DNA of 53,021 nt, from the NCBI GenBank assembly GCA_051872765.1, contig JBJEED010000031.1:1-53021 (forward strand). The letters are read 5' to 3'. Position 1 is the first letter of the stretch; each line of letters begins with the position of its first letter. The notes under the pieces were generated by a model. That model saw only the letters and a program-made list of their open reading frames with translations. It had not been told where the DNA came from and ran no database searches. Source of the stretch: Bacilli bacterium. Its GTDB lineage: Bacteria > Bacillota_I > Bacilli_A > RF39 > UBA660. Positions 37,301 through 53,021 of the stretch are shown here, one piece after another. The translations under genes were made by a program, and so were the position numbers.

Positions 37301-37813
37301 TTATTTTTTTAATACTTTATTTTTATTTAGTAATGGTTGATATATATGAGAGATAAAATCATCTTGTAACGTTAAACCTGTATTTAAATTTTTACTATAT
37401 TTTCCATTTCCTGCTGGTGAAAAACATATACCATAAGTTTTATGTGGTCTATCCAACATTTCATCAAGTTTTTTTGTACACCAAATTTTAAAACCAAAAC
37501 TATTTCTTTCAATGTTCAAACAACTTACAGAAGCAATAGACCATTCATCATCCGGATTTTAATAACAATCACTATGCCAAATTAATTTATTACTATTTTT
37601 ATAATTTGGTAAAATCTCATCATTAAAATCATAATAATTATTCATAAAACTATCTAGCAAATGATATAACTCCATTTCTTCAGTAACATTAATTACAGCA
37701 TCAGAATAAAAATACCATATGCATTCATCAGAAGAATGATCTATATACATTATTTCATTATTTTTATCATCATAGAAATGTATAGTTTTATTGCTTATAA
37801 CTTTTTTCATCAT
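37301..37813 (-). pseudogene. Cargo gene split by one in-frame TAA (37559-37561)
   Basis: The 84-aa and 72-aa ORFs share a frame: ..SDCY*NPDDEWSIASVSCLNIER.. Confidence 0.85.
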
Positions 37814-37841
37814 GTCACCTCATTGATTTCTATTTATTATA

Positions 37842-38750
37842 TCATACTAACTCATATTCTCTAACTGCAATTCTTTCATCCGAACAATATTCTATTACAA
37901 ATTTATTATCTTGTTTACAAATAATTATTCCAATAGTTTTATCTTGATTAAACTTTCTTAAATTTTTATCTATGTAATTCATATAAATTTGTATTTGACC
38001 AATATGTTCTTTCTTAAGTTCAGTTACTTTTAATTCAACAACTACAAAGCAATTATATTCATAATTGAATAATAGTAAGTCTATATAATTATAATTATTT
38101 CCTATTCTTATTTTATATTCACTTCCAACAAAACAAAATGAATTACCAAGTTCATTCATAAAAGATTCAATATCTTCTAAAATTAATTTTTGTAAAATCT
38201 TCTCAGATACAATTTCATAATTACTACTATTTTTAATTATTATTGGATTTTTAACATATTCAATTATATTGGATTCTTGTTTATCAGTTAATTTATTTTT
38301 TGTCTCTTCTGGTAATCTTTCATATTCATTTAGTTTTATTTTTTCTCTTAATTGCCTTACAGATAGATTTTGAATAATTGATATATTTATATAATAATTA
38401 ATTTTATTAAAATCATCATTCCATATCAATTCACAATAATGGGAATATGACAATTTGTCCGACAGCGTCGGACATTTTGAGAAAACATCATAAAATCTTC
38501 TAAAATATCTTAATCTAGATTGAGTATAACCTTTTCCTAAATCACTTGTTAATTTTTTTGAATATTCTTTAATTATACCTTCACCATAACATTTTCCTGC
38601 TTCGCTTAACATTTTCCCAACATTATAATAAGTATTTAGATCACTTTTATTAATTGAATAATTTTTAATTTTTCTATTTATTTCATTATTTATTAATTCA
38701 TTCTTAATTTCATTATAATAATTCATTTTACTACTTTCTATGGTGGACAA
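37842..38750 (-). CDS. YhcG/DUF1016 family PD-(D/E)XK nuclease-like protein
   Basis: LSYSHY, NLSVRQL, ELGNSFCFVGSEY, IDLLLFN..VVVELK, GQIQIYMNY; start probably MNYYNE. Confidence 0.92.
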   Translation of the reverse strand: MSTIESSKMNYYNEIKNELINNEINRKIKNYSINKSDLNTYYNVGKMLSEAGKCYGEGIIKEYSKKLTSDLGKGYTQSRLRYFRRFYDVFSKCPTLSDKLSYSHYCELIWNDDFNKINYYINISIIQNLSVRQLREKIKLNEYERLPEETKNKLTDKQESNIIEYVKNPIIIKNSSNYEIVSEKILQKLILEDIESFMNELGNSFCFVGSEYKIRIGNNYNYIDLLLFNYEYNCFVVVELKVTELKKEHIGQIQIYMNYIDKNLRKFNQDKTIGIIICKQDNKFVIEYCSDERIAVREYELV

Positions 38751-40834
38751 TTATTTATTTGTAATTTATTATTCTTAATCTTAAACATAATACTTCCATC
38801 TTGATCTGTTCTATATATTTTGCTATTTTTTAAATTATCTAACACACTATCATTTGGATGACCATATCTATTATTCTTTCCAACACCAATTAAACAATAT
38901 TTAGGATTAATATTATTTATAAATTTTTCACTTGATGATGTATTTGATCCATGATGTCCTACTTTTAATACATCTATATTTTGTAAATCATATTTTTCTA
39001 TTATATCTTCTTCTACTTCTAATCCTGCATCTCCCATAAACAAGAACTTATGATTATCTAATTCAGTATAAATAACACTTGAATTATCATTTTCATTACC
39101 GTAATCTTCGTTATTTAAAAACTTTAATTTGTTATTATTAATATTTAGTTCTTTAATGCATGAATAATATGGTATTTTCTTTTTATCTAATACTTTGATA
39201 AGTTTTTGTTCAAGTTCATTAAATTCACCACAATTAAATATCACATTTTCAACTTTAAAATTATTTACCAAATTAATAGCCTCACCCATATGATCATAGT
39301 CTCCATGCGTTAATAATAAATAATTTATCTTTTTAAGACCAATACTTTTAAAAAAAGGAATCATGCTAGATGTCATCAAATTAAATTTATTATTTTGAAG
39401 AGCCCACTTTTCTTTATAGTAATCAATTTTACCACCTGTATCAATTAGAATACTTTTCTTATTTTTAGTAATTATAAGTATACTATCACCTTGATTAACA
39501 TCAATAAAATATATGTATGTATTATTATTAAAACCAGTTTTAATATATAAGTATACTATAAAAACTATAAATGGTAAGATAATTATTTTTTTATTCTTAA
39601 TGATTAAAATAAATAATGTATAATATATTATTATCTCTAATATATTCATTCTTGCAAAATATAAATATAGATTAAATATATTTGAACTAATTTTTGATAT
39701 ATTCTCCATAAAAGTTATAAGAATAGTTAATATTTCATTTAAAAAAGGAAAAATGATATTAAGAATAGCAAACGGAAATACTATATAGCTTACATAAGGA
39801 ATAAAAAATAAATTATTAAAAAAACATAATATATTTATTTCATAAGACATATTTATTATGAGCGGTATACTAGATAAAAAAGATATTAAACTTATAATTA
39901 ATATACTTTTTATTTTTCCTTTAATTTTATAATTTTCATTAAATAATATAATAAAAAATGTAATAGTGAAAGATAATATAAATCCTATATTAAATATATA
40001 ATTAGGATTTATAAATGTAATAATAATAAAAGTTAAATATAAAATATTCCTAGATTTAATATTTAAATAATATATTTCATTTATATTTATAAGTATAAAA
40101 AATATAGTTGCTCTTAAAATTGAAGGCGTAAAAGATGCAATAAAAGAAAAAATAATTAATAATACAGATGTTAAAAAAAGAGATATTTTTTTAGATATTT
40201 TAAATTTATTTAAAATAAATATTATAATAGATGATAACATAGAGACATGAAGTCCAGATAATGAAAATAAATGTGTAACACCATTAATTTTATAATTATT
40301 ATACAATTCATTATCTATATAATTTGTTCTACCAAGTATTAAAGCATATAAATAATCATTATTTTTTATATTAGAAATTCTTTTATAAATTAAATTTTTT
40401 AATTTAATAAAGATATTTCTATTTTTACTTTTTAATAATATAGTATTTATGTTAAGTATATATTTAATTTCTTTTCTTTCTAAATATTTTTTATAATTAA
40501 AAGTGTTAAAAATAGTATTATTACTTGGTATTTTAAGACTACCTTCAATTTCTAATTTATCGCCAATTTCATAATTAAACTCTTCTTTTTCTTTTTTATT
40601 ATTAAAATAATATGTTCCAACTAAATCTTCATAAAAATTTAGTGCTAATTTATCTCCATCTATTTTAATATCACTAATCGTTAAAATAAATTTATTTTCA
40701 TTAATATTATATTTACTTTTTAGTTCATAGTTATAAACATAAATAATTATATAAATGATATTTATTATTAATAAAAAATAATATAAGCAATCATATTGTA
40801 ATATTGTTCTTAATCTTTTCAAAAGTATTTTCAC
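38738..40834 (-). CDS. comEC: DNA uptake channel ComEC
   Basis: GVTHLFSLSGLHVS, PSILRA, DVNQGDS, IDTGG, THGDYDH, KVGHHGS, YGHP. Confidence 0.96.
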   Translation of the reverse strand: MKILLKRLRTILQYDCLYYFLLIINIIYIIIYVYNYELKSKYNINENKFILTISDIKIDGDKLALNFYEDLVGTYYFNNKKEKEEFNYEIGDKLEIEGSLKIPSNNTIFNTFNYKKYLERKEIKYILNINTILLKSKNRNIFIKLKNLIYKRISNIKNNDYLYALILGRTNYIDNELYNNYKINGVTHLFSLSGLHVSMLSSIIIFILNKFKISKKISLFLTSVLLIIFSFIASFTPSILRATIFFILININEIYYLNIKSRNILYLTFIIITFINPNYIFNIGFILSFTITFFIILFNENYKIKGKIKSILIISLISFLSSIPLIINMSYEINILCFFNNLFFIPYVSYIVFPFAILNIIFPFLNEILTILITFMENISKISSNIFNLYLYFARMNILEIIIYYTLFILIIKNKKIIILPFIVFIVYLYIKTGFNNNTYIYFIDVNQGDSILIITKNKKSILIDTGGKIDYYKEKWALQNNKFNLMTSSMIPFFKSIGLKKINYLLLTHGDYDHMGEAINLVNNFKVENVIFNCGEFNELEQKLIKVLDKKKIPYYSCIKELNINNNKLKFLNNEDYGNENDNSSVIYTELDNHKFLFMGDAGLEVEEDIIEKYDLQNIDVLKVGHHGSNTSSSEKFINNINPKYCLIGVGKNNRYGHPNDSVLDNLKNSKIYRTDQDGSIMFKIKNNKLQINNCPP
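38877..39307. repeat. Direct repeat copy B (within comEC; partner 36786-37216)
   Basis: Near-identical sequence. Confidence 0.95.
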
Positions 40835-43900: not shown

Positions 43901-45607
43901 TTATACCTCCCTTTTTTGTGAATCGATAAATTCTTTAAATATTGTACTACTTTTCTCAAGTTCCTCATAAGTACCAATATCTTCGATTTTACCTTCTTCT
44001 ATTACGATTATTCTATCACAATCTTTAATAGTACCTACCCTTTGAGTAATTAATATAACCATTTTATCATTATATTCTTTCTTTATTGCTTCTCTTATTC
44101 TTTTATCAGTTATATAATCAACTGCACTAAAAGAATTATCAAAAAGTAAACATTCTCCTCCACTTAGAAGTGCTCTTGCAATAGACATTCTTTGTTTTTG
44201 ACCACCAGATAAATTGACTGCTGATTGCTCAACCTTATAATCATACCCTTCTTCATTATTATCAATAATATCATGTATAGCAGCAGTATGCATTACTTCA
44301 TCTATCTCACTTATATTGTATTTATTACCAAATGTAAGATTTTCTCTTATTGAACCTCTAAATAACAATGATTTCTGTGGAGTATATGCAAAAATATCTC
44401 TTAATGATTCTATATCATATTCCCTAATATCAATTCCATTTATAAGTATTTCTCCACTTGTTGCATCTATATGTCTTAAAAGTAAATTTACAATAGTAGT
44501 CTTTCCACTTCCTGAAGAACCAATTATTCCAATACTTTCCCCCTTAACAATTTTAAAATTTATATTTTTAAGCATTAAATTACGAGCATTTTCATATTTA
44601 AAGCATACATCTCTAAATTCTATACTTTCAAGAGTTTTTAATTTAATACTACCTGTATTTTTAATAGATGGTTTGACATTTAATATTTCATTTATTCTCT
44701 TAAATGAAACCATTACTCTTGGGATATTTAATATTATCACAAGTAACATTAAAAAGCTTACTAAAACAGTTGCCATATATTGAATAAATGCCATCATCGA
44801 TCCTATTTCTAATTCATTAGAACTAATAAATCCTGTTGAAACATATACTATTATTATAGTTGCAATATTAATAATTAAAATCATCATAGGTTGAACAAGA
44901 TATATTATTTTATTTAAAAATATATTTAATTTCTTATTTTCATCATTCACTTTATCGAATCTATTTTTAAAAAAATCTTGTTTATTGAATGCTTTAATAA
45001 CTCTTAAACCATATAATATTTCTCTAGATGTTGCATTTATTTTATCTAACAATTGCTGTAATTTCTCAAATTTAGGATATACTATTGAAAATATTATTAT
45101 AAGTCCAAGCATAAGTACACAAAGAGATACAACTACTATAGGAACAAGAGATGGTGCCGTTAGATATCCCATAATAGCGGCTCCTATTCCCATTATTGGA
45201 GCAAAAATTATAAGTTTTAATCCAAATGAAAATGTTGATGTAATATTACTTACATTATTTGTACTTCTAGTAATAAGAGTTGAAACTCCAAATTCATCTA
45301 TTTCTCTTTTACTAAAACTATTTATTTTTTTATATAAAGCATCTCTTATATTATAACCATAATAATTAGAAAATTTTGATGTGCTATACACAACTAATAT
45401 ATTAGATAATAAAGCAAAAATTGTAACTATAGTCATTAGTATAGTTTTATTTATAATAAAATCTTTATTACTATTTACAATGCCAATATCAATAATATCA
45501 CTCATTATATTAGGTAAATACAGTTCACAAATAACTTGAATTATTGAAAATATTAACATAAGTAAAATATATTTTCTAAGTCCTTTTGTTAACTTAAATA
45601 ATTTCAT
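43901..45607 (-). CDS. ABC exporter, fused permease/ATPase (heterodimer subunit A, degenerate site)
   Basis: GSSGSGKT, LSGGQKQR, degenerate FDNSFSAVD and TQR switch. Confidence 0.93.
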   Translation of the reverse strand: MKLFKLTKGLRKYILLMLIFSIIQVICELYLPNIMSDIIDIGIVNSNKDFIINKTILMTIVTIFALLSNILVVYSTSKFSNYYGYNIRDALYKKINSFSKREIDEFGVSTLITRSTNNVSNITSTFSFGLKLIIFAPIMGIGAAIMGYLTAPSLVPIVVVSLCVLMLGLIIIFSIVYPKFEKLQQLLDKINATSREILYGLRVIKAFNKQDFFKNRFDKVNDENKKLNIFLNKIIYLVQPMMILIINIATIIIVYVSTGFISSNELEIGSMMAFIQYMATVLVSFLMLLVIILNIPRVMVSFKRINEILNVKPSIKNTGSIKLKTLESIEFRDVCFKYENARNLMLKNINFKIVKGESIGIIGSSGSGKTTIVNLLLRHIDATSGEILINGIDIREYDIESLRDIFAYTPQKSLLFRGSIRENLTFGNKYNISEIDEVMHTAAIHDIIDNNEEGYDYKVEQSAVNLSGGQKQRMSIARALLSGGECLLFDNSFSAVDYITDKRIREAIKKEYNDKMVILITQRVGTIKDCDRIIVIEEGKIEDIGTYEELEKSSTIFKEFIDSQKREV

Positions 45608-45617
45608 TCTTTTCTCC

Positions 45618-46700
45618 TTATAAAATCATATTTATTATTTCATTCATTATATATATCTTATCTTCAGGAATATAAAGATAACCATTTTTATTAATAATAA
45701 GTTTTTTTGAAATTACTTCTTCAAACTTAAATTCACTAAATATATCTGTATTAAATTTATTTTTAAAATTTTCAATGCTTATTCCATCTAACTTTCTAAG
45801 TCCAAGTATTACTTCATTTTCCATTTCTTCACGAATTGAAACTAAAAATTCATCAAGTCTATATTCACCTTTTATATATTTATTATAACTTCTAGTATTT
45901 TCATATCTCATATCATTTATATAGCCATGACTTCCAAGACCAAATCCATAATATTCTTGATTATTCCAATAAGTTAAATTATGCTTACTTTCTTTTTTAC
46001 TCTTGGCAAAATTACTAACTTCATAATGATAATAACCATTTTGTTTTAATTTTTTACATATATATTTATACATTTTATAATCTAATTCTTCACTTACACT
46101 CTTAACTTTTTTATTATAAAGTGCTGTATGTTTTTCAATTATTAATGAATATGTACTAATATGATCCACATCTAGTTTTAATATTGATTTTATATCACTT
46201 TTAAGTATTGACATATTCTCAGTAGGTAAAGCATATATTAAATCAACATTAATATTATCAAATCCATATTGTTTACATAATTTAATATTTTTAATAATAT
46301 TTTTTTTATCATGCTTTCTATTTAAAAATTTAAGATTATATTTATTAAAACTCTCAACACCAATGCTAATTCTATTAACATTATTTTCTTTTAAAATATT
46401 AAGTAATTCATCATCTATATCATTTACATTACATTCAAATGTTATTTCACAATTTTCTACTTTATTAAATACCTTAAGTATACTAAATAATTTTTTTAAA
46501 TTAGATTTGCTTAGAGAAGATGGAGTTCCACCACCTATATACAATGTATCAATAACATCTTTTTCATAGAATTTATTTATTTCTTTTTCTAAAGAATCCA
46601 AATAATTAGATGCCCATGATTCATTATTCAAATACTTACAAAAATCACAATAAGAACAAATACTATTGCAAAATGGAATATGAATGTAAACACTTCTCAT
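45618..46700 (-). CDS. hemW: Radical SAM heme chaperone HemW (HemN-like)
   Basis: YIHIPFCNSICSYCDF, GGGTPS, YEVSNFA, HNLTYW. Confidence 0.93.
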   Translation of the reverse strand: MRSVYIHIPFCNSICSYCDFCKYLNNESWASNYLDSLEKEINKFYEKDVIDTLYIGGGTPSSLSKSNLKKLFSILKVFNKVENCEITFECNVNDIDDELLNILKENNVNRISIGVESFNKYNLKFLNRKHDKKNIIKNIKLCKQYGFDNINVDLIYALPTENMSILKSDIKSILKLDVDHISTYSLIIEKHTALYNKKVKSVSEELDYKMYKYICKKLKQNGYYHYEVSNFAKSKKESKHNLTYWNNQEYYGFGLGSHGYINDMRYENTRSYNKYIKGEYRLDEFLVSIREEMENEVILGLRKLDGISIENFKNKFNTDIFSEFKFEEVISKKLIINKNGYLYIPEDKIYIMNEIINMIL

Positions 46701-46718
46701 ATATACTACCTCAGTATA

Positions 46719-46747
46719 ATTATACTAATTTTTATATTGATTTGCAA
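46719..46747 (-). promoter_or_regulatory. sigmaA-type promoter for hemW
   Basis: TTGCAA-17 nt-TATAAT. Confidence 0.65.
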
Positions 46748-46779
46748 AGTATTTTAAATACAAAAAATAAAGTAAAAAA

Positions 46780-47988
46780 TTACTTTATTTTAAGTTCAAA
46801 ACCATTTTTATCAACTGGTAGTAATTGTGGTATATCAAAATTATTTTCTGAATATTCTCTTAAAACCCTATCTCTTCTTAATATTATTAAACCTTTTCTT
46901 AAGATTTGTCTTATTCTAGATGAAGAAACATTAAGCTCTTTAGCAATTTCTTCATCAGTATATTTTTTATCAGAGCAATATTTCATAACTATTGCTTTTC
47001 TAGTTCTATCATCTAATCTATCATTATTATATAACGCTCTTCTTATATCTAATATTTTTGCTTTTCTTAAATAATCGTCTTCTATATTAACTCTCTCATC
47101 ACTTAAAATATCACTTAATGTAAACTCTTCATTATCACTTATAGTGGTTGAAATTGATGTAATACTTGGAAGAGATTTACAAAACTCCACTCTACTTTCT
47201 TGCATATTTAAATCTTTTGCTATTTGCTTGTTACTTGGTTCAACATCATGATTATTTATTTTATATTCTTCTATATATGAACAAATTTTATTGTAATCAG
47301 CGTTTACTCTTTCTGGAATTATAATGCTTCTTTTTTCAACCGTGTGTCCTCTTGTTATAGCTTGTCTAATCCACCAAGATGCATATGTTGAAAATTTATA
47401 TCCCAATGAAACATCAAACTTTTCTATTGCTTTAATTAATCCAATATTGCCATCTTGAATAGCATCTTCAAATGAATATCCTTTATTAGCATAATATTTA
47501 GCAATGGAAACAACTAATTTTAAATTATGATTTATTAAATCATTATATGCATCAGTATCTCCAGACTTAATTCTATCAAATAATTCTACTTCTTCTTCTC
47601 TTTCTAAAATATCAAAATTTCCAATTTCTTTTAAATAAATACTTATCACATCTAAATTAGATTTATCATTATATTTTTTCTCACTAGAAAACTTTAAATC
47701 TTTATTATTTTTATAAACACTAATTATTAATTCTACATTTTCATCAATTACTTCAAAATCACTAAGTTCTATTATAGCATCTATCATTGAACATAACAAT
47801 AAGCTTGAATTTAATATCTCATCAGCATCTAGTTCTCCTAATTTAAAATTATTATTTTTAAAGAATTGAATTAATTTTTTATAATTTTTTATTTGACTAG
47901 ATTTACTAGGTTCTTTATCAAAATTACTTTCAATAAAATCAACTATTATTCTATTTTGAATTTTATTTAACTTTAAATCCTCTTTCAT
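46780..47988 (-). CDS. RpoD-like sigma70 factor, array member 5
   Basis: YLKEIG..L.REEE, NLKLVVSIAK, QDGNIGLIKAIEKFD..GYKFSTYASWWIRQAITR, region 4 SSSRIRQI; start ATG 47988. Confidence 0.93.
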   Translation of the reverse strand: MKEDLKLNKIQNRIIVDFIESNFDKEPSKSSQIKNYKKLIQFFKNNNFKLGELDADEILNSSLLLCSMIDAIIELSDFEVIDENVELIISVYKNNKDLKFSSEKKYNDKSNLDVISIYLKEIGNFDILEREEEVELFDRIKSGDTDAYNDLINHNLKLVVSIAKYYANKGYSFEDAIQDGNIGLIKAIEKFDVSLGYKFSTYASWWIRQAITRGHTVEKRSIIIPERVNADYNKICSYIEEYKINNHDVEPSNKQIAKDLNMQESRVEFCKSLPSITSISTTISDNEEFTLSDILSDERVNIEDDYLRKAKILDIRRALYNNDRLDDRTRKAIVMKYCSDKKYTDEEIAKELNVSSSRIRQILRKGLIILRRDRVLREYSENNFDIPQLLPVDKNGFELKIK

Positions 47989-47989
47989 A

Positions 47990-49198
47990 CTAATTATCAC
48001 CTCTATATTTATAAGAATAATTTAATTGTGCTGGTTTTGTTTGCTCTTGATGAGAAATATTATCACAATCAAACATTGATAATTTTTTATCACTTCTAAC
48101 TCTATCAATTATTATTTTTTTAACTTCACTAACATATTGATGAGATATACCCATAGCATCAGCAGTTTCTTTATCACTATATTGATTATATACCATCATT
48201 CTAAATATTTCTTTTTGTTTTTTAGTTGGTTTTTTTGCTTTATCAAATTCTTTACTAAAATCTTGAGCAAATATTCTATTTATAACTCTATCTTCTAAAC
48301 TTTCTTCATCACACGAAACGACTGAATAAAGAGTATCTTCATTTTCTTCACTGATATATGTATCTAGAGAAATTGCATCATCAATAATATTTTTTATAAA
48401 TTTTACTGTATCTATACTCATATTTGTTAGTTTTGATAATTCCTCATTTGTAGGTTCTTTACCATATATTTTTCTATATTCATCTATTGCTGCTGATATT
48501 CTAGCTCTATTTGCCTCATTATTAACTGATGTTTTTATAATTCTATTCATTATTACATATCTTTTTATACTAGAATATATTGCAGGATATACAAATGTAG
48601 AAAACTTATATCCTAAATTGCCATCAAATTTTTCAACAGCCTTAATAAGTGCTATATTTCCCTCTTGCACTAAATCCATTAAAGGAATTGAAGAATAATC
48701 AAACTTTCTAGCTATTGAAACAACTAATCTTAAATTGTGCTTTATTAATTCATCACGAGCTTTCACATCACCATTTTTAATTCTTTGATAAAGCTTAAAC
48801 TCATCTTCTCTTGATAATATTTTATAACCCTTTATTTCCAATAAATACATAGTAGTTGAATCATTTTTATTACTATTAACATATTCACCTATTAACTGAT
48901 TATAATTACTATCAAAACTCTCTTTTTCACATTCACTAATCATTTTATAAGCATCAAATAAGTTATTTGTACCGTATAAATGATTAATATCTTTTACTTT
49001 ATTTACTACACTTATCATCCTATTTAACTTAGGGCTCAAACTCAATAGAATAGTAGCATCTTCAATACTAATTGAATATTTTATTTCATTCAAAAAAACA
49101 AGTAATTTTTTATAATTCTCAAGTTGTATAGAATTACTCATTTTATCTTTAAAATTATTATTTACAAACTCAATTATTAATTTATTTACTTTACTCAT
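47990..49198 (-). CDS. RpoD-like sigma70 factor, array member 4 (most divergent)
   Basis: NLRLVVSIARK, DLVQEGNIALIKAVEKFD..GYKFSTF, region 4 GISHQYVSE; start ATG 49198. Confidence 0.9.
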   Translation of the reverse strand: MSKVNKLIIEFVNNNFKDKMSNSIQLENYKKLLVFLNEIKYSISIEDATILLSLSPKLNRMISVVNKVKDINHLYGTNNLFDAYKMISECEKESFDSNYNQLIGEYVNSNKNDSTTMYLLEIKGYKILSREDEFKLYQRIKNGDVKARDELIKHNLRLVVSIARKFDYSSIPLMDLVQEGNIALIKAVEKFDGNLGYKFSTFVYPAIYSSIKRYVIMNRIIKTSVNNEANRARISAAIDEYRKIYGKEPTNEELSKLTNMSIDTVKFIKNIIDDAISLDTYISEENEDTLYSVVSCDEESLEDRVINRIFAQDFSKEFDKAKKPTKKQKEIFRMMVYNQYSDKETADAMGISHQYVSEVKKIIIDRVRSDKKLSMFDCDNISHQEQTKPAQLNYSYKYRGDN

Positions 49199-49227
49199 AT
49201 TTTTCACCCCCCTTTTTAAACTTAATA

Positions 49228-50331
49228 TTATATTAATGATTTTGCTTTTTTTAGTTTCATTACAGCACTAGTTTCTATACTTTTTACTCTTTGTTTTGTA
49301 ATTCCATTTAAGAATTGTCCAATTTCTTTAAAACTATATCCATACACATATTTATATAACAATACTTTTTGTTCAGTTTCACTTATTTTTGCCTTTTCAT
49401 AAAGTGATTCTAAAGTTTTAGCAGCATAGATTCGTTGAATTAATTCTTCTTCTAAATCTGTGTCTGATACAATATAATCACCTAAAGTACCATCATAATC
49501 TGGCTGTATTTTATCATCTATACTTAATGTTCCTATTAATGCTCTTTCTAATATACTGATTGTTTGAATTGAATATCCACTTAAAGTAGATAATTCTTTT
49601 ATTGTTGGATTTCTAAAATATTTATTTTTAAATTCTCTTTTGATTACACCCAATTTTTCATTTCTCTCCCAAGCAGCAACTGGAATTCTAATTGTCCTTG
49701 ATGTATTGTCTATATATCTTTTCATTTTTTGTCTTATAGAGTATGTAGCATATGTTGAAAACTTAAATCCTCTAGTTTCATCAAATGTAGAAACACAATT
49801 AATAAGTCCAATATTTCCTTCTTGTATCAAATCCTCAATAGCAATACCTGAATTTGCAAATCTTTTTGCATTATTAACCACTAATTTTAAATTATGATTA
49901 ATAATTTTTTTTCTTGCTAATTCATTACCTTTATTAGCTAATTCAAATAGTTCCTTCTCTTCTTCTCTACTTAATACTTTAAAGCCTTTAATTTGTTGGA
50001 TATACATATTAACTGAGCTTCCTAACTCACAATCAATATCAAAATCCAAATCAAATTCATCATCATATAAAGTAAACATAGACTTTATACAAGAAGGGAC
50101 ATCTAATTTAATTGATCTAACAGCATAAATAATATCTAATAATGACGGAATATTTTTAATTAAGTATTCTGCTTCAAATTCATTAATTACATATTTTTTT
50201 AATTCTAAAAATTCAATTAATTTTTTATAATTTTTTATATATGTTGAATTATTATTATTATCTTTTTCAAATTCTAAATTAATAAAATTAATAATTTTAT
50301 TTAGTTTATCTTTATCAATTACTGTTTTCAT
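49228..50331 (-). CDS. RpoD-like sigma70 factor, array member 3
   Basis: NLKLVVNNAKR, DLIQEGNIGL, RGFKFSTYAT, RTIRIP, TKQRVKSIE; start ATG 50331 or 50343. Confidence 0.92.
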   Translation of the reverse strand: MKTVIDKDKLNKIINFINLEFEKDNNNNSTYIKNYKKLIEFLELKKYVINEFEAEYLIKNIPSLLDIIYAVRSIKLDVPSCIKSMFTLYDDEFDLDFDIDCELGSSVNMYIQQIKGFKVLSREEEKELFELANKGNELARKKIINHNLKLVVNNAKRFANSGIAIEDLIQEGNIGLINCVSTFDETRGFKFSTYATYSIRQKMKRYIDNTSRTIRIPVAAWERNEKLGVIKREFKNKYFRNPTIKELSTLSGYSIQTISILERALIGTLSIDDKIQPDYDGTLGDYIVSDTDLEEELIQRIYAAKTLESLYEKAKISETEQKVLLYKYVYGYSFKEIGQFLNGITKQRVKSIETSAVMKLKKAKSLI

Positions 50332-50360
50332 ATTTCCCCCCATTTTTTATTTATTTAAAG

Positions 50361-51545
50361 CTATTTAATCATTCTTCTTAATCCTAATCGTGAAATATAT
50401 ATATTTCTTAATTTATCTGACCCTCTTTTTTCTATTTGTCTTATTCTTTCCTTAGTTAAATTAAATTCTTGTGCTACTTCATCCAATGTTTTTTTATCAC
50501 AATCATCATCACCAATTCTAAGTCTTAAAATAGTTTTCTCTCTTTCATTTAAAACATTTATTTCACTTAAAATATCACTAATACTAGAATATATTAATCT
50601 ATCAATTACAATATCCTCAACGTTACAAGAATCATCCGCTTTATCTTCTAATAATGATTCTAATTCATCTTCTCCTCTTTCGCCTACTGTAGTATTTGAA
50701 CTAACAGTATCAACACAATGATTCTTAACATCTTTAATAGTATTTACAGAAAGTCCTGTTAATAAAGATAATTCTTTATTATTTGGTTCCCTACCATTTG
50801 CGCAAATGAAAGAATCTGAAGCTTTTTTTACTTTTAATATTTTTTCTTGCATATGAATTGGTATTCTAATTACTTTACTTGTATTTTGAATTGCTCTTTG
50901 TATTTTATGTTTAATACATATGTAAGCATAAGTTGAAAATTTATTTCCACGTCTATAATCATATGTATCAACTGCTCTTATTAATCCATCATTTCCCTCT
51001 TGCACTAAATCTTCTATATCTAAATCACACCCTACATACTTCTTAGCTATAAAAATTACTAATCTTAAGTTATGATTTATAATTCTTTCACGAGCTTTAA
51101 CATCGCCATTTTCATATTTTTTAAATAATTCTACTATCTCTTCATTGCTTAATAATTTATATTCAGAAATATCCTTTAAATATAATTTAAAGGATGATAT
51201 ATTTTCTAAACTACTTTCATTAAAAACTAAATCATTTTCAGAATCATTTTCTATTTCACTTACTTCTTTATAATCAAACAATCCTTTATCTAGTTGTTCA
51301 GATTTATTAGCATATTTTCTTACAACTTTCATACAAACATTTAATTTTTGAGATTTAGAAAATAATAATTCTGCATCTAATTCACTTATTTTATAATTAT
51401 TTGCTTTTAAAAATATTAATAATTTTTTATAATTCTTCATTTGTTCAGAATCGAATCTACTTTCATTAAAATTACTATTAATATATTTTATTATTTCTTC
51501 TATTTCATCTAAACTTAACATTTTTATTGTATCTTCTTTATTCAT
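50361..51545 (-). CDS. RpoD-like sigma70 factor, array member 2
   Basis: NLRLVIFIAKKY, DLVQEGN.GLIRAV, KFSTYA, IRIPIHM, TLDEVA..TKERIRQIE. Confidence 0.93.
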   Translation of the reverse strand: MNKEDTIKMLSLDEIEEIIKYINSNFNESRFDSEQMKNYKKLLIFLKANNYKISELDAELLFSKSQKLNVCMKVVRKYANKSEQLDKGLFDYKEVSEIENDSENDLVFNESSLENISSFKLYLKDISEYKLLSNEEIVELFKKYENGDVKARERIINHNLRLVIFIAKKYVGCDLDIEDLVQEGNDGLIRAVDTYDYRRGNKFSTYAYICIKHKIQRAIQNTSKVIRIPIHMQEKILKVKKASDSFICANGREPNNKELSLLTGLSVNTIKDVKNHCVDTVSSNTTVGERGEDELESLLEDKADDSCNVEDIVIDRLIYSSISDILSEINVLNEREKTILRLRIGDDDCDKKTLDEVAQEFNLTKERIRQIEKRGSDKLRNIYISRLGLRRMIK

Positions 51546-51572
51546 TTTATTTCCCCCCTATCTTTTATCATA

Positions 51573-52853
51573 TTATTTTTTTCTTACATAATGAAACTTA
51601 TTTCCAATCTTCACCTTTTTATAAGAATGCAAATATTTGTCTGGAACAAGATTCAAAAAATCTGTGTTTTTTCTTAATTTTATAAATGCTTTATCTTCTA
51701 TTTGTTTTACTCTTTGTCTTGTAATATTATACATTTTTCCTATATAAACACCATTATAACCAAAAGCATACTTTAAATATAATATTTCTTTTTCTCTTTG
51801 TGTTAAAACATCAGTATTTAATATAAAGTTTCTTATCTCTCTTGACATTATATTTGAAATTACTTTTGTCTCAACAGATACATTACCATCAGGAATAAAA
51901 TCTAATACTGTTTCATCTTCATCTTCTCCAACATACTCATTTAGACTAGAAACATCTTTATAATGTCTTTTAAATATATCAACCTGTTCTATACTAATAT
52001 TAAATTGCATAGATATTTGTTTATCAGTTGGATAAGTGCCATTTTTACTAAAATATTCTAATATATACTTTTGAACATTTCTCATTTTATCATATGTATT
52101 ATTTGGTATTCTTATAAGTCTATTTGTCTTTTTTATAGCAACTAGTATAGTTTGTCTAATCCACCAAGTTGCATATGTAGAAAACTTAAATCCTCTAGTT
52201 TCATCAAATTTTTCAACTGCCTTCATTAAACCAATATTTCCCTCTTGAATTAAATCATTTAAAGCTAAATTAAAGTTATTATATTTTTTTGCAACATTAA
52301 CAACATATTTTAAATTATGGTTTACAATTTCTTCAAAAGCACTACTATCTCCAGCATGATATCTTCTAAACATTTCAATTTCTTGCTCAGGTGTATAAAC
52401 TTCCATATCTTTAATTTCGTTATAATAAAGATCTGTTAAATTTAAATCTCTTTTACCTCTACTAGTCATTGTAGAAGTCTTAGAATTACGATTTAATACT
52501 CTTTCTTCAAAATTTTTTATATCAAAAACTTCAAATAATCCCGTTACTAATGAATTTTCTTCTATACCATGCTTACATACTACTTTCATTGTATTTAATA
52601 ATTTAGGGCATCTAGAAAATAAAACATCAGCATCTGCTTCATTAATACTACATTGCATCAACCTTAAATGTTTTAATAAAAGCCTATAATTATCTAATTG
52701 CTTACTTTCAACTTCTAAAGGACTAAAACTAGTATTTATAAATTCTACCAATTCATCTATTTGTTGATGATTTAAAGAAAAAACTAAATCATTTTCAAAA
52801 TCAACATCTAAATCACTCGTATAATCAATATACGATAAATCACTATCCATCAT
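51573..52853 (-). CDS. RpoD-like sigma70 factor, array member 1
   Basis: NLKYVVNVAKKY, DLIQEGNIGLMKAVEKFD..RGFKFSTYATWWIRQ, TRQRVKQIE. Confidence 0.93.
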   Translation of the reverse strand: MMDSDLSYIDYTSDLDVDFENDLVFSLNHQQIDELVEFINTSFSPLEVESKQLDNYRLLLKHLRLMQCSINEADADVLFSRCPKLLNTMKVVCKHGIEENSLVTGLFEVFDIKNFEERVLNRNSKTSTMTSRGKRDLNLTDLYYNEIKDMEVYTPEQEIEMFRRYHAGDSSAFEEIVNHNLKYVVNVAKKYNNFNLALNDLIQEGNIGLMKAVEKFDETRGFKFSTYATWWIRQTILVAIKKTNRLIRIPNNTYDKMRNVQKYILEYFSKNGTYPTDKQISMQFNISIEQVDIFKRHYKDVSSLNEYVGEDEDETVLDFIPDGNVSVETKVISNIMSREIRNFILNTDVLTQREKEILYLKYAFGYNGVYIGKMYNITRQRVKQIEDKAFIKLRKNTDFLNLVPDKYLHSYKKVKIGNKFHYVRKK

Positions 52854-52925
52854 AACTTATTCCCCCCCTAAATATATATTAAATTATTCTCTATTCCTTC
52901 TTATACCCCTTGTCATTTCGCGTAG

Positions 52926-52954
52926 ATTATATCATACTTTTTGAAAAAAGTCAA
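52926..52954 (-). promoter_or_regulatory. sigmaA-type promoter heading the sigma array
   Basis: TTGACT-17 nt-TATAAT with extended -10 TG. Confidence 0.85.
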
Positions 52955-53021
52955 CTTTTGTTCGTATTTGATAGAGTAAAATAGAATTGGGATTGCATAA
53001 AAAAAGAAAGACCATGTTAAA

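Follow-up and report, generated by a model that had tools for sequence, protein, structure and literature searches.

Sigma factors form the top level of bacterial gene control, and small genomes usually contain few of them. Primary-like, non-essential members of the sigma-70 family are placed in group 2, with cyanobacterial SigB-E, Streptomyces HrdA-D and RpoS as examples, and extra RpoD-like sigma factors are known mainly from cyanobacteria and actinomycetes. Here we describe a locus in an uncultured Bacilli bacterium of the gut (GTDB lineage Bacillota_I; Bacilli_A; RF39; UBA660) in which five RpoD-like sigma genes, s1 to s5, lie head-to-tail on the minus strand (positions 46780-52853). The locus is part of contig JBJEED010000031.1 of assembly GCA_051872765.1, which was analyzed over its full length of 53,021 nucleotides (nt) and is called the window below. 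We think it probable, with some reserve, that this locus is a single transcription unit encoding five anciently diverged, lineage-restricted, group-2-like sigma factors with promoter classes of their own.

The array proteins resemble group 2 sigma factors in being RpoD-like, in carrying regions 1.2 to 4, in existing beside one housekeeping sigma factor and in having no adjacent dedicated anti-sigma factor. By sequence, some members (s1, s5 and many relatives) also retain SigA-like recognition residues for the -10 and -35 elements. They differ from group 2 in that the family shares an N-terminal module of ~95 amino acids (aa) with no detectable similarity to region 1.1, and in that its genes occur up to six in tandem, here as a single five-gene unit. 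Three of the five array members have also lost the WW dyad, the aromatic pair of regions 2.3-2.4 that primary sigma factors use at the upstream edge of the -10 element. Finally, the family is almost entirely confined to one genus, where it occurs in 0-8 copies per genome and evolves much faster than SigA.

Other described systems share single traits with the array. The SigI expansion of cellulolytic clostridia is likewise a lineage-specific multiplication of one sigma type, with parallel regulons, but there each SigI is generally paired with its own membrane anti-sigma factor RsgI, the genes are dispersed and the proteins are not RpoD-like, whereas no anti-sigma gene adjoins the array. The sigE-sigG pair of endospore formers consists of two adjacent genes of another sigma group with well-known regulators; the source genome (G000) has such a SigE-like/SigG-like pair on contig C90, apart from the array. 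MzaA of the MZA anti-phage system (NF041931, PDLC02203) has an RpoD-like sigma core, and its models match all five array proteins at E-values of 1e-29 to 1e-61. However, only model positions ~417-658 of 683 are matched, at 100-209 bits against a cut-off of 800; the N-terminal part of MzaA (~420-470 aa) is absent from the array proteins, and the neighbors of the array are not Mza partners. For Turicibacter sanguinis, a gut spore-former, the accessible part of one report lists three sigA paralogs at scattered locus tags with no function assigned (PMC13492147). This is similar in that extra SigA-like genes exist beside a true sigA in a gut member of the Bacillota with four sporulation sigma factors, but that part of the report mentions neither a tandem array nor a special N-terminal domain, and the comparison is one of descriptions only (PMC13492147). 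We found no description of tandem RpoD-like sigma arrays or of the module in the literature covered by our search, which did not extend to subscription journals and supplements. The array is part of a genus-wide, tandemly amplified RpoD-like sigma family with a previously undescribed N-terminal domain; its biochemical class is clear.

The five open reading frames (ORFs) encode proteins of 371-426 aa: s1 (51573-52853, 426 aa), s2 (50361-51545, 394 aa), s3 (49228-50343, 371 aa), s4 (47990-49207, 405 aa) and s5 (46780-48000, 406 aa). For s3, s4 and s5 we favor downstream ATG codons at 50331, 49198 and 47988 (367, 402 and 402 aa), because the gene calls of orthologs and the positions of the Shine-Dalgarno sequences speak for them. 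With these starts, the intergenic gaps from s1/s2 to s4/s5 are 27, 29, 29 and 1 nt, the ATG of s5 lying one base after the stop codon of s4; the original ORF calls give 27, 17 and 20 nt and an 11-nt overlap. A preliminary description of the locus, made from the sequence alone, had reported five consecutive, co-oriented and intact sigma-70 ORFs with no gene between them, which the ORF list of the window and the Pfam matches bear out.

The five proteins are only 29-37% identical to one another and 29-38% identical to SigA. Their relatives include proteins of another genome of the genus, G245: s1 is 92% identical to P0121 and 95-96% identical to its G245 counterpart, and s2 is 78% identical to P0002 and 98.7% to the G245 protein, beyond which ordinary RpoD proteins follow at ~43% over 67% of its length. 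The orthologs of s3 are P0123 (77%, starting at s3 residue 5) and a G245 protein (98.7% over 148 assembled residues). The most divergent member is s4, with only two relatives above 32% identity (98% and 86%). In public databases the orthologs carry only generic names ('RNA polymerase sigma factor RpoD/SigA' or 'sigma-70 family RNA polymerase sigma factor'). The array lies among hemW, ABC exporter genes, comEA and comEC. Since the array and its flanks have a similar GC content (0.21-0.25), composition gives no signal of an island.

The source is a metagenome-assembled genome (MAG) of 1.44 Mb in 94 contigs, 78% complete with 4.8% contamination, and the window is an entire contig that ends 168 nt upstream of s1 in the end of a multi-copy insertion sequence (IS). 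Support for the arrangement comes from other data. Runs from three studies yielded contigs that together tile the region and span all four junctions: two of 8,596 nt (run X2) and 6,894 nt (X3) over 45000-49683, one of 2,150 nt (X1) over 47735-49883, one of 2,476 nt (X2) over 49846-52319 and one of 1,048 nt (X3) over 51476-52498. X2 and X3 belong to the same study, and X1 may be the source sample. Many short joints in this tiling, with sides of 20-39 nt, were considered as rearrangements and are better read as cross-matches of conserved sigma motifs. G245 carries the orthologs in the same order: contig C34 has those of s1, s2 and as much of s3 as is assembled, and C52 (locus L135) has those of s4, s5 and hemW, its first 84 nt encoding the end of the s3 ortholog. 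In addition, a 15,123-nt ENA contig carries relatives of s2, s3 and s5 together. The arrangement is thus real and no artefact of assembly. In G245 the array has no sixth sigma gene upstream, and five is likely the complete gene count in G000 as well.

At the head of the array we found a promoter (52926-52954, minus strand) of the sigmaA type, TTGACT-17-TATAAT with an extended -10 TG, which has 11 of 12 consensus matches and is conserved in G245. Promoter-like sites as such are not enriched in the region (75 found, 71.6 expected). Across the family, at least 11 of 12 matches to TTGACA-17-TATAAT precede the first gene in 8 of 13 arrays or singletons, five of them perfect (12/12) and seven with the TG, although the 13 loci include orthologous ones and hence are not independent. 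In the genome background of 622 operon-first-like genes, 10.3% reach at least 11 matches and 2.3% all 12. These signals point to a SigA-dependent and strong, probably vegetative, expression of the array.

Each of the five genes is preceded by a Shine-Dalgarno sequence, which for s1-s4 is a run of six or seven G (GGGGGGG at 52862-52868 for s1) and for s5 sits inside the final codons of s4. Directly after s5 there is a terminator-like, AT-rich hairpin with a U-run (46764-46791, minus strand), whose 12-bp stem starts at the s5 stop codon. Its folding energy is -11.1 kcal/mol (z-score -4.8; none of 200 shuffled sequences was equally stable). A consensus terminator scan missed this hairpin because it demands three G-C pairs; the same scan found no terminator-like sites within the array. 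Thus, the near-consensus promoter at the array head was seen correctly in the preliminary description, whereas its statement that no terminator is obvious has to be revised. The downstream anchor gene hemW (45618-46700, minus strand) lies outside the sigma family (TIGR00539, 303.9 bits against a cut-off of 205.4) and has its own promoter-like site at 46719-46747 on the same strand (TTGCAA-17-TATAAT, 10/12), which is a consensus match only and of a kind frequent in such AT-rich DNA. Searches in and beside the array revealed no known RNA elements, no tandem DNA repeats, and no anti-sigma gene or defense partner. Taken from promoter to hairpin, the five genes appear to form one transcription unit.

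The domain content of the proteins was examined with Pfam and NCBIfam models. Region 2 (PF04542) was found in all five at 55-72 bits (cut-off 24), region 3 in all but s3, and region 1.2 in three, with s2 just under the cut-off and s1 unlisted. Per protein, the regions above cut-off are 2, 3 and 4 in s1 and s2; 1.2, 2 and 4 in s3; 1.2, 2 and 3 in s4; and 1.2, 2, 3 and 4 in s5. RpoD-type NCBIfam models nevertheless span regions 1.2-4 in four of the five, while the RpoD and RpoS alignments of s4 end within or before region 4. The earlier claim that each protein has all four regions therefore holds for the full-length alignments of four proteins and not for every single-domain model. The best NCBIfam matches are RpoD, RpoS and cyanobacterial RpoD models: the best RpoD model of s1 scores 201-204 bits, far under the cut-offs, that of s2 223.6 bits against 572, and in s3 an RpoD C-terminal model is aligned over positions 1-228 of 238. 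Among the matches listed, the generic sigma-70 model TIGR02937 reaches 82-102 bits (cut-off 42.9) in s1, s2, s4 and s5. By these matches, the five belong to the sigma-70 family.

None of the curated equivalog cut-offs is reached (NF006666 gives 129-224 bits against 572, compared with 542.5 for the genome's own SigA). The canonical dnaG-sigA locus is found on contig C15, where a 364-aa SigA directly follows dnaG and scores 542-543 bits with the RpoD model. The array proteins stand apart from group 1 in their RpoD scores, in the absence of region 1.1 and in their context, which is hemW and not dnaG. They also stand apart from group 3, since TIGR02980 scores 94-115 bits against 234 and the SigF, SigG, SigE, SigK, RpoH and FliA models all remain under cut-off. 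Overall, the genome has 13 region 2 matches; SigK-, SigE-, SigG- and SigF-like genes lie on contigs C32, C90 and C9. A gene on C60 (L013:41-1159) is of the extracytoplasmic function (ECF) type: in its 372-aa product an N-terminal ECF-type sigma domain is followed, beyond residue ~190, by a hydrophobic stretch, and the C-terminal part is long, so that this may be a fusion of a sigma and an anti-sigma-like protein.

A tree of the sigma core groups the SigA of G000 with ten diverse RpoD proteins (98% support), places the family on long branches immediately outside this clade and has the sporulation sigma factors as the outgroup. The tree comprises 44 rows (7 of 51 were dropped because the motif used for trimming was absent) and comes from a quick LG+G4 search, and long-branch effects leave the exact branching unsure. 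As far as sequence comparison goes, the family is RpoD-like and not a recent copy of its own lineage's SigA. By architecture, that is, by regions 1.2-4 in a genome with a separate primary sigma factor, the five are additional primary-like (group-2-like) sigma factors, and the lack of the family in 12 of 50 genomes of the genus is compatible with dispensability. The label primary-like in the preliminary description is thus supported by the best-scoring models and the separate dnaG-sigA, with the qualification that no equivalog cut-off is reached. The term group 1 is not accurate for the array members, as they carry an unrelated module in the position of region 1.1 and the tryptophan dyad is missing from three of them. 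None of the five resolves as an ortholog of a known, separately characterized sigma factor, as judged from the NCBIfam scores and the other sigma genes of the genome, and the phylogeny that it had proposed places the family just outside the RpoD clade and apart from the sporulation sigma factors.

The array proteins share an N-terminal module. The first ~95-105 residues can be aligned among the five but not with SigA; the module spans residues ~13-119 of s1 (52497-52817), 1-101 of s2 (51243-51545), 1-102 of s3 (50038-50343), 1-96 of s4 (48920-49207) and 1-103 of s5 (47692-48000). A variable acidic linker separates it from region 1.2. In G000, a profile of the module gave 95-127 bits on all five proteins and hit nothing else. 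Among 1.84 billion representative proteins, it produced 75 matches at E <= 1e-3, 12 of them at E <= 1e-10. We scanned the 47 full-length matches (339-521 aa) together with the five window proteins for domains; the other 28, left unscanned, are 27 fragments of 55-273 aa and P0183, a protein of 1,218 aa with 20 module-like stretches that proved to be a repetitive coiled-coil false positive. In the 52 scanned proteins the module is always followed by region 2; region 4 was found in 50, region 3 in 43 and region 1.2 in 36.

No Pfam family covers the module in the five or in the other scanned members. Region 1.1 (PF03979) is absent from the five at E <= 0.01 and from the 52 at E <= 0.001, and homology of the module to region 1.1 was rejected at the sequence level (hhalign gave a probability of 0.6% against the N-terminus of the G000 SigA and 0.24% against a 113-sequence region 1.1 profile). 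A comparison with PDB sequences yielded no match better than E 0.031. The conservation pattern, with amphipathic stretches, polar loops between them and few Gly or Pro columns, suggests a module of three or four helices that is probably all-helical. Its isoelectric point (pI) is basic in s4, at 9.0, and mildly acidic in the other four, at 4.6-5.3, compared with 4.1 for SigA residues 1-90. The ratio of nonsynonymous to synonymous substitution rates (dN/dS) within the module is 0.19 in s4 and 0.34 in s5, which indicates purifying selection on the module itself.

We also predicted complexes of the module with its own sigma core. The median ipSAE of three runs was 0.42, compared with 0.00 for the best of three controls, with a partner pLDDT of at least 67 and contacts that agreed to at least 22% across runs. 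In the calibration, the ipSAE mark was reached by 58 of 80 solved complexes and by 2 of 110 mismatched pairs, and at values up to 0.60 by 7 of the 80 and by both mismatches; these counts hold only roughly here, since the prediction used custom alignments. The model thus lends weak support to a docking of the module on its own sigma core. The module had no match in viral contigs, phage records or plasmid records in single-sequence or pattern-based searches, which distant relatives could escape; a phage or plasmid origin of the family, which we had considered, was dropped on this result. When viral sequences were scanned with SigA as the lead, only generic RpoD-like hits came back. Among the roles suggested in the preliminary description, which were a transcription-reprogramming cascade, competition for core polymerase or action on promoters of a phage or of another cell, the phage idea thus gained no link to phages or plasmids from these searches.

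Besides the typical members, long forms of 716-860 aa occur in other genera and once in G022 (L198:2311-4530, L199:1953-4133 on the minus strand, L200:2525-5107, L201:86-2236; also L203:1663-3186 and L202). They consist of a leader of ~80 aa, the module, a complete sigma core (E 1e-105 to 1e-120 with the family hidden Markov model) and a C-terminal extension of 250-370 aa that contains two or three extra region-4-like helix-turn-helix modules and no membrane segment. Their neighbors are UvrC, a GH94 enzyme or a polysaccharide-synthesis gene, not dnaG.

All five proteins, like the 32 relatives compared with them, have a conserved region 2.2, through which sigma-70 proteins mainly bind core polymerase. 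The WW dyad is kept in s1 and s5 and lost in s2, s3 and s4. In region 4.2, s2 is close to SigA, s1, s3 and s5 differ from it at several positions, and s4 is unrelated in sequence. Region 2.4 of s4 is also unlike that of SigA, and both s3 and s4 differ from SigA in both helices. These paralog-specific sequences are stable between orthologs. Between s4 and its 86% identical ortholog, 19 of 19 residues in region 2.3-2.4 and 16 of 18 in region 4.2 are identical; for s5 and its 85% ortholog the values are 16 of 19 and 18 of 18. Because they are nearly invariant in orthologs, we argue that the paralog-specific helices are functional surfaces.

From these features we infer how the locus may work, namely core binding, distinct promoter classes, co-transcription and a role for the module. 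The strong sigmaA-type promoter would drive a single five-gene transcript that would end at the AT-rich hairpin. Each sigma factor most likely binds core RNA polymerase through the conserved region 2.2 and would steer it to its own promoter class, set by paralog-specific residues of regions 2.4, 3.0 and 4.2. In this scheme, s1 and s5 would use SigA-like -10 elements, and s2, s3 and s4 different ones. Since one mRNA would serve all five genes and no anti-sigma gene lies nearby, their relative activity is most likely set post-translationally, by competition for core polymerase and by the N-terminal module, perhaps folded back onto the sigma core.

Selection on the genes was estimated as dN/dS by the method of Nei and Gojobori (NG86), comparing G000 with G245 unless stated otherwise. 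The values are 0.21 for s1 (synonymous divergence dS 0.09), 0.46 for s2 (dS 0.014, very few changes), 0.07 for the N-terminal part of s3 that is assembled in G245 (dS 0.04), 0.24 for s4 (dS 0.29) and 0.25 for s5 (dS 0.30). For comparison, hemW has 0.14 (dS 0.26), two ABC exporter genes have 0.07 and 0.14 (dS 0.07 and 0.03) and SigA has 0.01 (dS 0.16). With ratios below 1 and yet well above that of SigA, the genes are maintained under purifying selection but far less constrained than SigA. The proposal that the array is selectively maintained thus agrees with the computed values: the five are intact, and all measured ortholog pairs have a dN/dS below 1.

The family was also surveyed in related genomes, using a deeper profile of the module. 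It is present in 37 of 49 other genomes of the genus, that is, in 38 of 50 overall: 12 genomes have no copy, 18 have one, nine have two, one has three, four have four, five have five and one has eight, where absence from an incomplete MAG does not prove true absence. Arrays of four or five copies spaced 1.2-1.5 kb apart were seen in G242, G251, G258, G256, G257 and G260. In other genera of the same taxonomic family the module was found in 7 of 199 genomes, and in other families of the class in none of 16. This supports the lineage-specific nature of the array that had been proposed. According to their record titles, related contigs come from uncultured Bacilli of gut and rumen and from 'Tenericutes' or 'Erysipelotrichaceae' MAGs.

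The preliminary description had further called for a survey of synteny with hemW, and we compared 63 hemW-anchored loci, 16 of them with a hemW at least 67% identical and 47 more distant. Of the 16 close loci, nine have one to six family genes upstream of hemW; none of the distant loci has any there. Conversely, LepA is encoded near hemW in 30 of the 47 distant loci (directly upstream in 17, within three genes in 13, absent nearby in the other 17) and in none of the close ones. Our assumption that an ORF of ~600 aa before hemW is always lepA was wrong in part; in L144 the 612-aa ORF encodes a histidine kinase. Elsewhere, arrays adjoin ThiI/NifS-like/RNase J genes, LepA, a hybrid histidine kinase or FtsK/HerA-like ATPases. 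When 64 family and control proteins are placed in a tree, the arrays of G012, G002, G022 and G006 group by genome, which indicates tandem duplication within lineages, whereas L142, L143 and L148 retain positional orthologs. The five genes of the window are old, as the branches between them amount to about one change per site. The family evolves through tandem duplication, loss and recombination inside one genus of uncultured gut Bacilli.

Several observations weigh against five distinct and functional sigma factors. The dN/dS values of the five genes are 7 to 46 times that of SigA, so that constraint is clearly relaxed, and those of s2 and s3 rest on very few substitutions. In the C-terminal tails, which comprise about 30 codons, dN/dS reaches 0.8-1.7. 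Region 4 (PF04545) passes its cut-off in four proteins but not in s4 (19.3 bits against 24.1), and the complex prediction for the module is weak by the calibration of the tool itself. No RNA runs containing the stretch are listed, the DNA runs that contain it being pig-gut and digester metagenomes. Target promoters did not come to light either, although no systematic search was made for them. Some array copies of other genomes contain in-frame stops, so members do decay. One such array member, with two in-frame TAA stops, was found at seemingly the same array position in three genomes (G251:C2:13279-13560, G242:C12:20694-20975, G260:C151:3995-4267) and may be a shared pseudogene. Finally, many relatives keep recognition helices almost identical to those of SigA, and part of the family may overlap the specificity of SigA instead of serving new promoter classes.

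The last points lead to the view that the genes are redundant SigA-like duplicates in a process of birth and death, kept by dosage or drift under relaxed constraint and without distinct regulons. Besides the SigA-like regions 2.4 and 4.2 of many relatives, the decaying copies, the copy number of 0 to 8 and the recent tandem duplications seen in the genome-wise clustering would agree with this, as would the orthologs at L142, L143 and L148, whose dN/dS of 0.38-0.63 compares with 0.09-0.15 for hemW. However, the five proteins of the window share only 29-37% identity with each other. Their recognition helices are very different and yet preserved in orthologs, the dN/dS is well below 1 for all five, the module itself is under purifying selection, and G245 has kept the same five genes in the same order. 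We therefore regard redundancy as unlikely for this locus and prefer the reading of five sigma factors with their own promoter classes.

Divergence between G000 and G245 is mosaic along the whole window. The dS is 0.26-0.30 for s4, s5 and hemW, as opposed to 0.01-0.09 for s1-s3 and the ABC genes, and the X2 contigs agree with this step (22 differences in 2,474 nt over s3-s1, 358 in 4,684 nt over hemW-s3). Because dS changes between s1-s3 and s4-s5-hemW and again at the ABC genes, a recombined tract inside the array is suggested. The array is not the only hypervariable patch, a possibility that we rejected: the most diverged part of the window is 37686-39285, with 72-80% nucleotide identity to G245 as against 97-100% for the ABC exporter genes. 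That patch overlaps a gene for a YhcG/DUF1016 PDDEXK nuclease (37842-38750) and the end of comEC.

The s4-s5-hemW tract, with ~10% nucleotide divergence where s1-s3 and the flanking ABC genes show ~1-5%, is the basis of another reading, in which the locus would be a recombining sigma cassette. Its co-expressed members would be duplicated, lost and swapped between strains, so that strains of one species would run different programs, and the module would be a common handle that gates access to core polymerase. In a bolder version, SigA inhibitors of phages or mobile elements would drive the diversification, and the cassette would provide defense through sigma-factor diversity. We give the cassette a small chance only.

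A related idea is that of an arms race with phages or mobile elements, with the five proteins serving as spare or decoy sigma factors under attack by phage anti-sigma factors or as activators of defense genes. Phages do encode anti-sigma factors against primary sigma factors, and the fast evolution and variable copy number of the family, the mosaic divergence with its recombined-looking tract, and the nuclease and polyvalent-protein genes inserted at the same site in some relatives would suit such a role. MzaA, according to the names of the NCBIfam and PADLOC models, offers a precedent for a defense-associated sigma factor, but its models hit only the generic sigma part of the array proteins, at no more than 209 of the 800 bits demanded. 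Nor are there partner defense genes beside the array, or matches of the module in the viral, phage and plasmid records. The locus lies among the core genes hemW, ABC exporters, comEA and comEC, and other parts of the window are more diverged than the array. We consider this explanation quite improbable.

The array might also be a lineage-specific set of developmental sigma factors for sporulation or germination, acting with or downstream of phosphorelay-like and spore-channel-like neighbor genes. The organism has SigE/F/G/K-like genes, a SigG-like gene is present in 36 of the 38 family-bearing genomes, and in relatives the arrays are preceded by genes for a hybrid histidine kinase, an Hpt-domain protein, a SpoIIIAH-like and a GerM-like (Germane) protein (L144:83-4922; L136, L140, L146). 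Homologs of these context genes exist in G000 on contigs C25 and C14, but C14 has no overlap with the window end, and the upstream genes of G245 are different. SigG is also found in 7 of the 12 genomes without the family, while two family-bearing genomes lack it, so that a strict link with sporulation was not found across the 50 genomes. Arrays elsewhere adjoin unrelated housekeeping genes, and the array promoter is of the vegetative sigmaA type and not of a sporulation type. A developmental role is thus very doubtful.

The surroundings of the arrays show further variation. At L140 the four context genes occur without any sigma array, and at L129 the array is followed by a seven-transmembrane (7TM) hybrid histidine kinase. 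Some relatives' arrays are headed by a short sigma-like gene (L142:1818-2687, L143:150-1073, L148:1735-2637, L127:5954-6673) that encodes 239-307 aa with region 2, a weak region 3 and a helix-turn-helix and without the module, and that forms a long-branched clade of its own; no such gene precedes s1 in the window or in G245. Insertions at the position directly before the arrays are varied, with a restriction-endonuclease-like gene and an immunoglobulin (Ig)-like protein gene at L142:19-1704, a gene with the LPD23 polyvalent-protein domain at L146:2554-3885, and in G245 (L204:3170-8920) an IS together with genes for cadherin-like and BspA-LRR/dockerin surface proteins. This position thus resembles a hotspot of insertion.

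That the array is an assembly artefact of collapsed or chimeric paralogs, or a set of dead genes, is scarcely credible: the MAG is fragmented and incomplete, many of its contig ends share 55-nt tips and the array abuts a contig end, but contigs of three other studies bridge every junction, the genes also occur together in G245 and on the ENA contig, none of the five frames is interrupted and each has a dN/dS below 1, and a mutual identity of 29-37% is too low for mis-joined copies.

The contig end itself is the end of a multi-copy ISLre2-like insertion sequence (52967-53021, minus strand), the body of which lies outside the MAG. Contigs C93, C49 and C3 end in the same 54-55 nt as the window, and the start of C15 matches the window end at 90% identity over 81 nt. 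G245 holds the window-end sequence and the promoter at 98% identity over 159 nt, where it runs into a gene for a divergent 473-aa UPF0236 protein that among NCBIfam models matches the ISLre2 family transposase best (161 bits, below the cut-off of 200). From the shared contig tips and the continuation in G245, we conclude that the assembly broke at a multi-copy IS ~15 nt upstream of the -35 box. A join of contig C14, which carries the upstream context genes of relatives, to the window end was rejected, as the two ends do not overlap and come from different repeat families.

An IS end is found 10-20 nt upstream of a -35 box at five contig ends (C31, C49, C3, C15 and C93). In four of these (C31, C49, C3 and C15) a near-consensus sigmaA-type promoter follows, in C93 the -10 element is weaker, and C15 is the dnaG-sigA contig. 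The IS may have an insertion preference just upstream of strong promoters. A relative of the IS body was found on C39 only, at 26-34% identity. More generally, many contig ends of the MAG share tips of 52-62 nt, in families of up to 14 ends, which shows that dispersed repeats or strain-level graph junctions fragment the assembly.

In this gut bacterium, whose assembly has 1.44 Mb and is 78% complete, five of the 13 region 2 matches form one putative operon. If the five have distinct promoter classes, they would be a compact natural set of orthogonal RpoD-type sigma factors, useful for studies of the evolution of promoter specificity and as synthetic-biology parts. As to the role that region 1.1 plays in primary sigma factors, the N-terminal module would provide a second answer. 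For the genus itself, the locus is a tractable case of the birth, death and recombination of master regulators.

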